Part shown: piece after piece, positions 753 through 5,276 of the stretch
Numbering within the stretch: position 1 is the stretch's first letter
How the letters are laid out: every line of letters begins with the position of its first letter
IMG/VR virus record: IMGVR_UViG_3300045988_121362
Coordinates: 1-5,276 of that record
Direction: 5' to 3' (one strand)
From: a virus
DNA: 5,276 nucleotides
Made by a program: the position numbers and the translations under genes
The notes under the pieces: model-generated
The model's database searches: none
Seen by the model: the letters and a program-made list of their open reading frames with translations, nothing else
Told to the model about the DNA's origin: nothing

Positions 753-760
753 CACTCCTT
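753..760 (-). promoter_or_regulatory. Shine-Dalgarno site for VP2 (AAGGAGTG). It overlaps the VP1 TAA stop at 761..759.
   Basis: Read on '-', the sequence is TAAGGAGTGATCTAT-ATG. This suggests VP1 and VP2 translation are coupled. Confidence 0.6.
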
Positions 761-2447
761 AGAAATGTCCAATCATACCAGGAATACCATACATAGGCAT
801 AGGACGGATACATTTAAGATTGAATTTAACATCAAGCAAGAAATGAGGATAGGACGGAACAGCAACAACACGGCTGATCGGAGGATGATCCTGTATAAAT
901 TCATCCGACAAAGTAGGCAGAGTAGCAAATTTTTGAGAAAGATGCCAAATGTCTAAAGGCTCCTTATAAGTTGAGCGGAATTGACCGGTAATCAAAGACG
1001 GCTTATAGCGATATTCAGCATAACGCTCTTGATAACCAAATACCTTTTTATCTTCATCATTGCCTTGGCAATAAATTTCAATATTTTCTATAGCCTGTTC
1101 ACCAAGGTGAGCAAAGGACGGCCAATAAAAATCCAACACATCCGAGCGTAACCACATTCTATTTATACCTTGCTGGTAAGTCAAATCAGCACGAACATTA
1201 ATCAAGCCAATAACATAACCAAATTCAGAGAAAGATTTTGTAAAGGCATGATAGCGTTGAGCATTTAAGCCATATGCAGCTAAATTACCTTGTGGAGTAG
1301 TAGAATCGGTGGAGCTAGTTTGAGTAACCGGGTTGATATTCATCATGCTGCTATGCGATCCGAGGAATTCCGGACGTTGCAAACGAGCATCAGGATTAGT
1401 TACACCGAAGTGAGCCTGAAGTTTTTCTGTGTAACGAGTGCCACCGCGAGCATCAATTTCATAGTAACGTTGCAACATGAAAGCCTGACGCAGTGAGTTA
1501 ATAGTTATAGAAGTTGCAGAAGACAAATCAACACTAACACCATTAACAGATTTAAGAGGGAATTCTTTAGGATTGGCACCAACACCATGAATAGTATCTG
1601 TTTCATAGTTATCAAAACCAAAAGAAGAAAGAGAATTAACGGAAAGATTAGTAGGGAAAAAACCATGATCAACATGAAAAGAAGATGAAATAGCTGCAAG
1701 ATAACCAGCAGGCATAGTTAAAGAAGCATTATCACCAACAACCAAAGCAGCAGTCTGTCCTAATGGCAGATCAACAGCAGGGCCTTTTTGTGGCCAAGGC
1801 AGAGCACCGGTGAAATAATCATATCTTTTTCCACGGGGAGCCGGGTCATACCAATTTTTTACGCCGGACGGCAAACCATAATTAGGATTAGCAGTAGATT
1901 GTCCCATTGGTTCCAAAACTGTATTAGTTTCACCTTTGGAAATCTTTACAGACTTCTGCAGATTTTCATCACGGAACCATTCGTTCCAAATAAGCCAATA
2001 CGAGCGGAAAGGCAAACAATTAACAGATACATTATTAAAATTACCAGAAGCACAAGCTATACCCATATAATCAGGCAGCTTGTTAGTCATATCACCGGTA
2101 AGAGATACAGTAGGAACAAGGTAGTCAGTGGAATCTTCGGGATTTTCCTGCTCACCACAAAGATTTACCCATTTATCATATACGAGCCTAGACGGAACGA
2201 AGAAGAAAAAAGACTCAATATAGATGTTATCCATAAAAGGAACAACCGGAGTAGCCAAACGGCAGAACTCAACAGGATTTAAAGTAAAAGTATCGCCTGG
2301 AATAACTTCATCCACAAAGTAAGGAATAAGCTGGCCTTCGTTAAAAGTAGTTTTGTAAACATGACTTCTATCAAAGACAGAACGGCGAATATTAGCTTGA
2401 GGAATCATCGCAAAATGCGACTGATTAACACGAATATTTCGAGCCAT
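759..2447 (-). CDS. VP1: VP1, the major capsid protein (F-like). It is 562 aa.
   Basis: ATG at 2447 sits 7 nt after AAGGAGA. The N-terminus MARNIRVNQSHFAMIPQANIRRSVFDRSHVYKTTFNEGQLIPYFVDEVIPGDTF matches the conserved gokushovirus VP1 start (RSxFDxSH..KTTF..G.LIP....EVLPGDT). It is the longest ORF in the genome. Confidence 0.92.
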   Translation of the reverse strand: MARNIRVNQSHFAMIPQANIRRSVFDRSHVYKTTFNEGQLIPYFVDEVIPGDTFTLNPVEFCRLATPVVPFMDNIYIESFFFFVPSRLVYDKWVNLCGEQENPEDSTDYLVPTVSLTGDMTNKLPDYMGIACASGNFNNVSVNCLPFRSYWLIWNEWFRDENLQKSVKISKGETNTVLEPMGQSTANPNYGLPSGVKNWYDPAPRGKRYDYFTGALPWPQKGPAVDLPLGQTAALVVGDNASLTMPAGYLAAISSSFHVDHGFFPTNLSVNSLSSFGFDNYETDTIHGVGANPKEFPLKSVNGVSVDLSSATSITINSLRQAFMLQRYYEIDARGGTRYTEKLQAHFGVTNPDARLQRPEFLGSHSSMMNINPVTQTSSTDSTTPQGNLAAYGLNAQRYHAFTKSFSEFGYVIGLINVRADLTYQQGINRMWLRSDVLDFYWPSFAHLGEQAIENIEIYCQGNDEDKKVFGYQERYAEYRYKPSLITGQFRSTYKEPLDIWHLSQKFATLPTLSDEFIQDHPPISRVVAVPSYPHFLLDVKFNLKCIRPMPMYGIPGMIGHF

Positions 2448-2461: not shown

Positions 2462-2568
2462 AATTTTAATAAAAAGCCAAAAAGCACGAGAACGGCATTT
2501 TTGTTATCAAATCAGAAGGTAATTAAAAATAAATAAAAGGCTTATTTTTGAAGGTTTTTCTGATTTTG

Positions 2569-2616
2569 TGTCACCTTGACCAGTTACTATCAAGTAGGTA
2601 ACTGGTCAAGGTGACA
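2569..2616. repeat. Perfect 19-bp inverted repeat with a 10-nt loop: tgtcaccttgaccagttac [tatcaagtag] gtaactggtcaaggtgaca. It lies in the VP3-VP1 intergenic region.
   Basis: The arms at 2569..2587 and 2598..2616 are exact reverse complements. It is 38 nt downstream of the VP3 stop and 122 nt upstream of the VP1 start. Confidence 0.9.
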
Positions 2617-2654
2617 GGATTATTATTCTACATAAGTGAATATTAGCATATAAG

Positions 2655-3098
2655 TTATTTTTGCTCTGATTGAGGCTCTCCTGCTACCGAACCGACAGCT
2701 TCTACCGGACTGTCTACAATAGCCTTCTGTTTTAGGCCTAACTCCTCTAGTCTGGAAGTAACCTTAGGATCAGTAGAAGTCAGAGCATCAAGCAGCTGCC
2801 TTGGATCATTACCGAATTCAGCACGGACGCTGGAAGGCAAATCTGCAAATTCAGCATTAACATTTGCAACGAGGTTGCAGGCAGTTTCATAATCCGGCAA
2901 TAAGGTAGTATCTCCATATTGGAGAGTAGCCGGATCATGAGCACCAACAGAATCTACAATACCGGTAGTATTAAAGTTGGCTATAATATGATGAATATCG
3001 CATTCTTCAGCGAATGTCTGATCAGCAAGCGAAGGCTGCGTAATTTCTACGTGCGGTTTTGGCGGTTGTTCGTCATAAAGCGTATAAAACTTAGCCAT
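2655..3098 (-). CDS. VP3: VP3, the internal scaffolding protein. It is 147 aa.
   Basis: ATG at 3098 sits 8 nt after AAAGGAGAT. It carries the motif set I recall from gokushovirus VP3: ...EECDIHHIIANFNTTGI...LQYGDTT...EFADLPSSVRAEFGNDPRQLLDAL...LGL. The tail is acidic and Glu/Pro-rich. Confidence 0.8.
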   Translation of the reverse strand: MAKFYTLYDEQPPKPHVEITQPSLADQTFAEECDIHHIIANFNTTGIVDSVGAHDPATLQYGDTTLLPDYETACNLVANVNAEFADLPSSVRAEFGNDPRQLLDALTSTDPKVTSRLEELGLKQKAIVDSPVEAVGSVAGEPQSEQK

Positions 3099-3354: not shown

Positions 3355-3636
3355 TTACATTTTAGCAGTATCAGGGGGAGATGTCAATAATTCAGTGGCC
3401 GTAGAGAGGAGCAAAGTGGGAGATTGTGGGGAAAATACGCACGTTTTGTCATCAAACTCGCCAAGATACATCAAAACGAAGTCCTCATGATAATCATGAA
3501 TGATATTGGAACGCTCCGGAGTAGACGGCTGGTTAACCATAATCTGAAATTGACGGATAGCCATAGCATTATTTTGTTGGGTAAAGGGCGGGTTCATCAA
3601 CTCGCCCTTGCGGTCATAAATACAATAAAGTTTCAT
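3355..3636 (-). CDS. Hypothetical 93-aa protein (Y93) directly downstream of VP4. Its function is unknown. By position it may be a VP5-like protein.
   Basis: ATG at 3636 sits 5 nt after GAGGTG. It is on the same strand as all other genes. I recognise no motif in MKLYCIYDRKGELMNPPFTQQNNAMAIRQF... Confidence 0.6.
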   Translation of the reverse strand: MKLYCIYDRKGELMNPPFTQQNNAMAIRQFQIMVNQPSTPERSNIIHDYHEDFVLMYLGEFDDKTCVFSPQSPTLLLSTATELLTSPPDTAKM

Positions 3637-3733: not shown

Positions 3734-4687
3734 TTATAAACCTAAATTATCAAAATCACGCTCAAATTGTTCCTGCCGATGCTTCATAATCTTCTCCTTG
3801 GCTTCCAGCCTTTTAGTATCGATAACGGCAGCCTTGGCATTATCAGCCTTATTTTGCTTGTATATACTATACCAAACGGGATTGCTGCGCTCAAATAATG
3901 TTTGATAATAACGAGGTATTTTATACTTAGCTCCATTGATAGTAACAAAACCAAGTTTAAAAATATCCTCAGAATAAAGACCGAAATAATCTGCACCTAT
4001 ACCAGGCTTTAAAGAACTGCCAACAAACTCCGGACTAATGCCGAGAGCATCATACATACAAGCGTTTTTACCGGTCTGCTTTTTAAGGCTATATTTAGCA
4101 ACATACCGAGCGGACTCAAATGTAATAGCTCCGACAGTATTATAACCATACGGCCAAAGTTTCTCCAGCGTGGGAGAGCGAAAGAGGTTATAGCCAGCTG
4201 TCAACGCCGAGATTTTGCGAACATCATCAGGAAACCAACCAAAGCACAAAATATGATAATGTGGACGAGCATTAAGATCGCCATACTCGCCGCAGCATAA
4301 AAAGCGGATCTTAGAATTATCATGATAATCTAAATAACGGCGAAGCCGTTTAAAAAACAACTGCAGGTGATCACGATGCAGCGAGTGATCCGCTGGCAAG
4401 CAATCGTCATTATAAGTTAAAGTGATAAAACAATTATGAAGATGCAGCTTTGCTTCGTGGACACAACGAATCGCCCAATCGTTAGCTTTATCCAAACGGC
4501 AGCCTAAACACTGACCGCAGGGAACAACAACAGCATAATTATTAGCTAACTCACTTTTAGCTATTTCAAGCGATTTACCGGACAGATCACGATAGGAAAC
4601 GAAATTAGATAGCTCATACTTACCATTAGCATTAGGAACAGCAGAGCGTTTAGCAAATAAAGGATGAAGGCAAGTCATAATACACAC
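3734..4687 (-). CDS. VP4: VP4, the rolling-circle replication initiator (phiX174 gpA-like superfamily endonuclease). It is 317 aa from the GTG at 4687, or 314 aa from the ATG at 4678.
   Basis: RCR motifs are present: CFITLTY (motif I), PHYHILCF (the HxH metal-binding motif II) and ARYVAKYSLKK (motif III, with two catalytic Tyr spaced as in phiX174 A, YVAKY). A Cys cluster PCGQCLGC is also present. The start is ambiguous. The first in-frame start is GTG and an ATG follows 3 codons later. Only a weak AGAAAG precedes either. Confidence 0.85.
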   Translation of the reverse strand: MCIMTCLHPLFAKRSAVPNANGKYELSNFVSYRDLSGKSLEIAKSELANNYAVVVPCGQCLGCRLDKANDWAIRCVHEAKLHLHNCFITLTYNDDCLPADHSLHRDHLQLFFKRLRRYLDYHDNSKIRFLCCGEYGDLNARPHYHILCFGWFPDDVRKISALTAGYNLFRSPTLEKLWPYGYNTVGAITFESARYVAKYSLKKQTGKNACMYDALGISPEFVGSSLKPGIGADYFGLYSEDIFKLGFVTINGAKYKIPRYYQTLFERSNPVWYSIYKQNKADNAKAAVIDTKRLEAKEKIMKHRQEQFERDFDNLGL

Positions 4688-4848: not shown

Positions 4849-5118
4849 TTAATTATTTTTTCCCAAAAAGCGGGAGTAGCTTTTCTCTTCCGCCTGCGCT
4901 GCTGCTGCATGGCGAAAGCCATTTACATCATCTGTACCTCTTTTCTGCGTATTGATAAGATCATCCTGCATAGCCAGAGAGATAGCTTTAAGGCTTGCGC
5001 TGCCTTCACGGTTATACTTGCCGGTACGAAACATATCAACGAAATCAACAACTTCTTGAATGAAAGGAATGACTGTAGATACGAGAAAAGTCAAAATAGC
5101 AGTAGTTTTGTTTGACAT
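4849..5118 (-). CDS. Small membrane-type protein of 89 aa (X89): MSNKTTAILTFLVSTVIPFIQEVVDFVDMF... It has an N-terminal hydrophobic helix and a charged C-terminal domain. It is a candidate lysis or membrane-associated protein.
   Basis: The internal ATG at 5118 of the 141-aa track ORF sits 6 nt after GAGGTG (plus 5125-5130). This RBS overlaps the VP2 TGA stop. The 52-codon extension upstream of this ATG lies in a different frame of the VP2 coding sequence and has no RBS. The hydrophobic stretch is at about residues 6-24. Confidence 0.6.
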   Translation of the reverse strand: MSNKTTAILTFLVSTVIPFIQEVVDFVDMFRTGKYNREGSASLKAISLAMQDDLINTQKRGTDDVNGFRHAAAAQAEEKSYSRFLGKNN

Positions 5119-5128
5119 AAAAAACACC

Positions 5129-5276
5129 TCACTTAGAAAAATAACTAGCAATGCTAGAAAACAAACGATTACCAGCACGGGCAAGAGTATTCCAAGGCAG
5201 ACCGTCATCAGACAATCCAAGATTTTTGTAGTCAGAATTACGAGAAGTCTTATAATCATAGTCAGCCTTAGCAACA
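5129..5276 (-). CDS. VP2: VP2 C-terminal end, duplicated by the window overlap. It ends ...GLPWNTLARAGNRLFSSIASYFSK* with a TGA stop at 5131..5129.
   Basis: The '-' frame is continuous with 1..746 through the junction, since window position 1 equals 5184. The stop codon is revcomp 'tca' at 5129-5131. Confidence 0.75.
   Translation of the reverse strand, partial: VAKADYDYKTSRNSDYKNLGLSDDGLPWNTLARAGNRLFSSIASYFSK
5184..5276. repeat. Second copy of the 93-nt terminal redundancy. It is identical to 1..93.
   Basis: Exact 93/93 identity with the window start. Window length 5276 equals 5183 plus 93. Confidence 0.95.

Follow-up and report, generated by a model that had tools for sequence, protein, structure and literature searches.

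Which step of the life cycle of a small phage is served by a long perfect inverted repeat placed between its scaffold and capsid genes is the question raised by this locus. The repeat lies in the window, the whole 5,276-nt stretch of virus DNA analyzed here, and four functions were proposed for it in an earlier note made from the letters alone: complementary-strand origin or primosome site, packaging signal, RNA processing or stability element, and operator of a regulator. The evidence points instead to a viral-strand (+) rolling-circle origin, i.e., the double-strand origin recognized by VP4, with the predicted nick site shown in the loop, and a probability of roughly 0.8 is assigned to this reading. 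It draws on comparative sequence analysis throughout: the φX174 site is matched on a specific strand, the element is conserved and its stem covaries, a second box keeps a fixed spacing, and VP4 has the catalytic motifs. The earlier list does not include it, and the loop had not been read there on the coding strand, where CTACTTGATA is the φX174 gene-A cleavage sequence.

The window belongs to a gokushovirus and has an exact 93-nt terminal direct repeat (1-93 = 5184-5276), an assembly overlap which shows that the genome is a circular unit of 5183 nt. All five of its genes are on the '-' strand: VP4, the Rep (4687..3734), with PF23343 (REP_ORF2-G2P) as its only Pfam match; ORF5/VP5 (3636..3355; Phage_ORF5, PF20577); the scaffold VP3 (3098..2655; Chlamy_scaf, 8.6e-27); the capsid protein VP1 (2447..759; Phage_F, 6.8e-170); and VP2, which spans the circle junction, has no Pfam match, and was assigned by its position and similarity to annotated VP2 genes. 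The names VP3 and VP1 had been given before any database search and are borne out by these Pfam matches. The closest GenBank phages share approximately 70% identity across half of the window genome only.

On the viral (coding) '-' strand, the hairpin is composed of the 5' arm TGTCACCTTGACCAGTTAC (2598..2616), the 10-nt loop CTACTTGATA (2588..2597), and the 3' arm GTAACTGGTCAAGGTGACA (2569..2587), and on the '+' strand 2569-2587 reads TGTCACCTTGACCAGTTAC and 2598-2616 reads GTAACTGGTCAAGGTGACA. The arms are complementary at 19/19 positions, and the coordinates, the perfect pairing, and the loop size were as first described. As ssDNA, the hairpin folds with -21 kcal/mol vs. -4.7 +/- 1.9 for 200 dinucleotide shuffles (z = -8.6), none of which folds as well (0/200), and no second long local hairpin was found in the genome, where the next perfect stem is 8 bp; the description "far beyond chance" is upheld by these values. 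The hairpin begins 38 nt past the VP3 stop (2655), as had been noted, while its distance to the VP1 start (ATG 2447) is 121 nt and not 122 nt. The 38-nt spacer (2617..2654, '-' strand) is 96% conserved among 16 close relatives, better than the flanking coding DNA, and may be part of the origin region. At permissive E-values, Rfam returned no family at the gathering threshold; its sole match, mir-582 (22.8 bits vs. 84, E = 0.5), was dismissed as a chance match of a generic long hairpin, far below the gathering score.

Microvirus genes are carried on the packaged strand, and since the window genes are all on '-', this is the strand on which the element has to be read. There, the loop CTACTTGATA is identical at nine of ten positions to the φX174 core CAACTTGATA (CAACTTG↓ATA). 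The φX174 RefSeq record reads cccCAACTTGATATTAATAACACTATAGACCAC and annotates the "origin of viral strand synthesis" at 4306, the A after CTTG, and according to a complete-mutagenesis study from 2026, the bond that protein A cuts and reseals is the one between G4305 and A4306, within a 30-nt ori+ (bioRxiv 10.64898/2026.07.25.740675). Because of this match, the window loop displays the cleavage sequence of the only biochemically defined origin of the family, and Rep is predicted to nick CTTG/AT between G2591 and A2590 of the '-' strand. A full-text literature search with the φX174 origin string gave unrelated primer matches only.

The distribution of the element, defined as a perfect stem of at least 8 bp enclosing CTTG[AT]T, was analyzed in a discovery set of 84 genomes (80 fetched via VP1 at 47-87% amino-acid identity and four cultured gokushoviruses) and in a held-out set of 74 genomes fetched via a VP4 profile at 36-46% identity. 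In the discovery set, it was found on the coding strand of 67/84 genomes and on the opposite strand of 1/84, with a mean of 0.2 in shuffled genomes; the corresponding values of the held-out set were 56/74, 6/74, and 0.1. Both sets together have 123/158 genomes with the element on the coding strand and seven occurrences on the opposite strand, while the bare hexamer CTTG[AT]T is equally common on either strand (362 vs. 343). The predicted nick of the unique hairpins always falls in the loop, at a distance of 2-7 nt (in most cases 2-5 nt) from the 3' arm. Written as arm-loop-arm, the hairpins of the cultured phages include Chp2 with CTAGCGTATAACAG-TCTACTTGAT-CTGTTATACGCTAG, φMH2K with AGTTCGGCTAC-GGACCCTACTTGTTGTAA-GTAGCCGAACT, and SpV4 with TGGGGCATAT-ATTACTTGTTATA-ATATGCCCCA; the chromosomal gokushovirus prophage of E. 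coli C5 has CCTGGCACAGT-GCCCTACTTGATGTA-ACTGTGCCAGG-TGACACC, with the hairpin at 3937-3973 of L160, 9 nt past a VP3-like gene. Under these strict criteria, the element is missing in 35/158 genomes (approximately 22%), Chp1 included, some of which are probably incomplete contigs or have variant motifs. Chp1 (L085) has no convincing CTTG[AT]T hairpin, nor the composite motif described below; a very large hairpin between VP1 and VP2 is annotated in its record as h1 (1386-1434 paired with 1448-1492), and its origin may be of another kind.

Conservation of the hairpin in related microviruses and covariation of its arms had been named by the earlier note as the check to make, and both were strongly positive. 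On an alignment of 40 sequences, the covariation score was 0.363 vs. 0.142 in shuffles (0/500 reach it) and 0.07-0.12 with the partners slid, and paired cells made up 68.5% vs. 53.7% in shuffles and 31-38% with the partners slid. RNAalifold retains eight core pairs, with compensatory changes in 8/8. No stretch is better conserved among the 15 closest relatives than the hairpin, with 98.4% column identity vs. 85% for the VP3 end and 92% for the VP1 start, and three independent compensatory double substitutions were found in it (L009, L012, and L014). This pattern indicates that selection is on the pairing of the stem and not on its sequence, with the loop and box fixed. The earlier view of the hairpin as a DNA-level element of the ssDNA phage life cycle is probably correct. 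The same data bear on a site bound by something other than Rep, either an operator of a dimeric regulator or a Rep-independent packaging signal. The perfect dyad symmetry would suit such a site, and its orientation independence would accommodate the four inverted copies described below, but the half-sites, i.e., the stems, vary while their pairing is kept, which is the opposite of the operator pattern. Moreover, neither the loop nor the box is symmetric, both are strand-specific (123 coding vs. 7 opposite-strand), and a genome of five genes has no regulator gene, leaving this explanation with the slightest chance of all.

A second conserved element, the box (G)TGACAC(C), was found by aligning the sequences on CTTG. 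It starts at +17/+18 from the nick G in 51/59 unique sequences and at +16 to +19 in 54/56 held-out hairpins, while its distance to the stem end varies from -4 to +7, which shows that the box is placed relative to the nick site and not to the helix. In the window, TGACAC is at 2568..2573 of the '-' strand (GGTGACAC = 2575..2568) and starts at +18 from the nick G. At the same spacing, φX174 has GACCAC, with G-A-C at +18 to +20, and the pattern CTTGNN-N14-16-GAC[AC][AC] has a single match in φX174, at its origin. With an N14-15 spacer, the composite motif occurs in 72/85 on the coding strand, in six on the other strand, and in approximately 10 in shuffles. TGACAC is the candidate Rep binding ("key") sequence. 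Its reading as the -35 box of a sigma-70 promoter was rejected, with a TAnn[AT]T hexamer at 16-18 nt in only 4/53 sequences.

The window box is buried in the distal 3' arm (GGTGACA), where it pairs with TGTCACC of the distal 5' arm; the evolution of this pairing in the 5' arm accounts for the stem of 19-20 bp in the window clade, the longest among 92 unique hairpins, most of which have 8-12 bp. In parallel with the 19-bp stem of the window, stems were independently extended into the box in two other clades (L120, L122, L134, L141, L146, L149, and L155, CACCGGAACCAGTTAC[..]GTAACTGGTTCCGGTG-ACACC; and L017, GTGTCAC...GTGACAC). Such recurrent sequestration of the box in a helix may be functional.

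The protein predicted to nick the loop is VP4 (3734..4687, '-' strand), classed as a rolling-circle initiator (HUH endonuclease) by PF23343 and its motifs. Motif 1 reads FITLTY in VP4 vs. FDTLTL in φX174 protein A, the HUH motif 2 reads PHYHILCF vs. LHFHAVHF, and the two-tyrosine motif 3 reads YVAKYSLKK vs. YVAKYVNKK, with YVAKY identical. The catalytic tyrosines of protein A are Y343 and Y347 (bioRxiv 10.64898/2026.07.25.740675), and these residues are invariant in an alignment of 12 VP4 sequences. A possible footprint of this activity was found in L030, where positions +1 to +12 (ATGTAACTGTTC) are exactly duplicated in tandem within 4882-4909, a 12-nt insertion relative to the closely related L038. 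The register of the duplication is unique, beginning exactly at +1 after CTTG, and the box is shifted to +29. This single case looks like the expected product of aberrant strand transfer or termination by Rep at G/A, in which the 5' A(+1) bound covalently to Rep would be joined to a newly made strand extended 12 nt past the origin; the start of the duplication coincides with the predicted phosphodiester bond.

In each of the 73 genomes examined for context, the element lies between genes, and its neighbors change: it is between VP3 and VP1 in 29 genomes, between VP3 and VP4 in 20, after VP5 in φMH2K, and after VP4 in SpV4, which fits an autonomous cis element. It is nearly always 0-90 nt past VP3, and given this proximity, it may have an additional or alternative role in gene expression. 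As an mRNA element, it would be a terminator, an RNase III or other processing site, or a 3' stabilizer of the transcript ending with VP3, and this is agreed with by its place 0-90 nt past the VP3 stop in both major gene orders, the use of φX174 intergenic hairpins as terminators (bioRxiv 10.64898/2026.07.25.740675), and a perfect 19-bp RNA stem that nears the size of an RNase III substrate. However, the stems of the family are typically only 8-12 bp, the hairpin follows other genes in φMH2K and SpV4, it is inverted, box included, in four genomes, and neither the conserved loop nor the downstream box is needed by a terminator. At least five T in the next 8 nt of the coding strand were found in 0/99 unique hairpins. 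An mRNA element is therefore very improbable as the main function. The intrinsic terminator was rejected outright, as it had been in the earlier note: the stem is followed on the coding '-' strand by CAAAATCAGAAAAA, which has no U-run, the tail taken for the terminator test (CAAAATCAG) has no U-tract, and the consensus scan made a terminator-like call on the non-coding '+' strand only.

Two circular gene orders were observed among L001-L080 and L082-L084, hp-VP1-VP2-VP4-VP5-VP3 and hp-VP4-VP5-VP1-VP2-VP3. They are related by a two-block swap with one breakpoint at the hairpin, and in either order, VP3 directly precedes the hairpin. Recombination may have a hotspot at the origin.

Bona fide inverted copies are present on the non-coding strand of L087 (1390-1419), L092 (4388-4419), L147 (2424-2452), and L158 (275-304). 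They have the loop ACTTGATGT and a correctly spaced box and occupy the usual VP3-VP4 slot, with the five genes on the opposite strand. Under the origin model, these phages would package the antisense strand, which is unprecedented in the family; otherwise, the inverted copies may be assembly or inversion artefacts.

One clade, L016 (4139-4164), L018, L030, L032, L038, L040, L041, and L045, has a second conserved hairpin, TAAGTGCAA-TACTCGTT-TTGCACTTA (arm-loop-arm), approximately 600 nt upstream of the origin-like hairpin. In L032 and L045, this second hairpin is present, and the CTTGAT hairpin was undetected. In the C5 prophage, dif-like motifs are at 2255 and 6741 of L160 with the hairpin internal, and a XerCD/dif attachment site was rejected since the hairpin is far from these junction motifs.

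A complementary-strand (minus) origin or primosome site, at which host PriA, primase, or RNA polymerase would prime the second strand as at the φX174 n' site, G4 oriC, or a plasmid sso, was among the functions first proposed. The stable intergenic hairpin on the packaged strand is what such a site would look like; in φX174, a hairpin between genes F and G serves as ori(-) (bioRxiv 10.64898/2026.07.25.740675), and conserved intergenic hairpins of other small microviruses were tentatively read as primosome sites in a 2022 study (PMC9865509). Nevertheless, the conserved loop CTTGAT and box TGACAC match the plus-strand origin of φX174, and the stem sequences vary freely. An unchanged loop and box are also shared by phages infecting Chlamydia, Bdellovibrio, Spiroplasma, E. 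coli, and hosts from gut or marine settings, which argues for a conserved phage protein as the recognizer and not for host factors, the priming machineries of such unrelated hosts being different. In addition, the adjacent covarying structures at 2478-2566 fit an ori(-) better, and the hairpin itself has only a slim chance of being one.

Both structures in 2478-2566 lie downstream of the main hairpin, and each has compensatory changes within a group of 16 close relatives. On the '-' strand, a long-range stem pairs 2558-2566 with 2509-2517 around an AT-only hairpin (2525-2549), and its arms change from AAAUCAGAA/UUCUGAUUU to AAAUACGAA/UUCGUAUUU. The other structure, also on the '-' strand, is a hairpin at 2478-2503 in which CAAAAAUG..CUUUUUG changes to CGAAAAUG..CUUUUCG; past it come a T-rich run and AAGGAG, the ribosome-binding site of VP1. 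The two may serve as the complementary-strand origin or, alternatively, as a terminator or 5' UTR of VP1.

The viral-strand origin reading can be laid out as a cycle. In the supercoiled replicative form, the inverted repeat would extrude or breathe, so that CTACTTG/ATA of the viral strand turns single-stranded, and VP4 would dock via the TGACAC box 17-18 nt downstream of the nick. One tyrosine of YVAKY would cut between G (2591) and A (2590) of the '-' strand and become linked to the 5' A, and the 3' OH would be extended by a host polymerase together with a helicase of the host. After one round, the hairpin would re-form on the displaced strand, the second tyrosine would cut, and the strand would be circularized and, by analogy with φX174, packaged; packaging may be coupled to the origin as it is in that phage. 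Cleavage at the site, the role of the box, cruciform extrusion, and this coupling to packaging are what we infer from the sequences. That a hairpin is required is extrapolated from other rolling-circle systems, since φX174, the one relative with a biochemically defined origin, lacks one. The window box, paired inside its stem, might hinder rather than help the binding of Rep in the extruded form.

A wider proposal joins several of these points. The hairpin and box would be the ancestral and near-universal plus-strand origin of Gokushovirinae, whose orientation alone sets the packaged strand, and the virions of L087, L092, L147, and L158 would then contain the antisense strand. Recombination with its breakpoint at the origin would have produced the gene orders VP1-VP2-VP4-VP5-VP3 and VP1-VP2-VP3-VP4-VP5, and stems of the window type would sequester the Rep-binding box as a switch between initiation on the duplex and termination on the displaced strand. 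As a whole, this proposal is speculative and unlikely to hold.

Gokushoviruses are among the most abundant ssDNA phages of gut, marine, and soil viromes. No description of a gokushovirus replication origin was found in the accessible literature, and an earlier mention in the original genome papers of φMH2K, Chp2, and SpV4 is possible. An origin of approximately 45-60 nt would give thousands of metagenomic genomes a natural zero coordinate and an annotation feature. Once defined, it would be a direct and testable substrate for VP4 biochemistry and the cis element needed for building replicons or phagemids from gokushoviruses in E. coli, where the system is tractable, and it would give a handle on the packaged strand of the rare inverted-element genomes. 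It also suggests an evolutionary link, in which the φX174 origin sequence is older than the split of the subfamilies and the hairpin was either lost in φX174 or gained in gokushoviruses.

Among known systems, φX174 ori(+) shares with the window the core (CTACTTGATA vs. CAACTTGATA), which is on the viral (coding) strand in both, a second element with G-A-C at +18 to +20 (TGACAC in the window, AGACCAC in φX174), and a cognate Rep of the same lineage with HUH and YVAKY motifs. The two differ in that the φX174 origin is within the coding sequence of gene A, whereas the window element is intergenic; no stem of at least 5 bp encloses the φX174 nick site, whereas the window nick is in the loop of a covarying hairpin; and the φX174 spacer is AT-rich and unstructured, whereas that of the window is the 3' arm of the hairpin. 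Since it is intergenic and embedded in a hairpin, the element cannot simply be counted as a φX174-type origin.

The double-strand origins of pC194/pUB110-family (Rep_1) plasmids have the same nick-site heptamer, CTTGATA, which is conserved in pC194-type origins (PMC10378824; the pC194 ori sequence is given in PMC7072734). Their initiator is Rep_1 (PF01446), whereas VP4 of the window matches PF23343 only, and they are plasmids, not phages, with unrelated flanking origin sequences. The hairpins at the φX174 n'/PriA site and F-G intergenic terminators and in the f1/M13 intergenic region are also between genes of ssDNA phages; however, it is host proteins that recognize them, and the CTTGAT/TGACAC signature is absent from them. 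A single intergenic region of f1 contains the plus and minus origins as neighboring hairpins, an arrangement that the window, with its hairpin and 2478-2566, may resemble.

The origins of CRESS-DNA viruses (circo-, gemini-, and nanoviruses) and pT181-type plasmids likewise have the nick site in the loop of a conserved intergenic hairpin whose stem covaries between lineages. The window loop is CTACTTGATA (xxCTTG[AT]T in relatives) and not the nonanucleotide NANTATTAC of CRESS-DNA viruses, no iterons were seen at the window element, and the elements are not homologous, the CRESS Reps having a helicase domain and the pT181 Reps belonging to Rep_trans. By analogy, the window element probably functions like the stem-loop origins of CRESS-DNA viruses and some plasmids.
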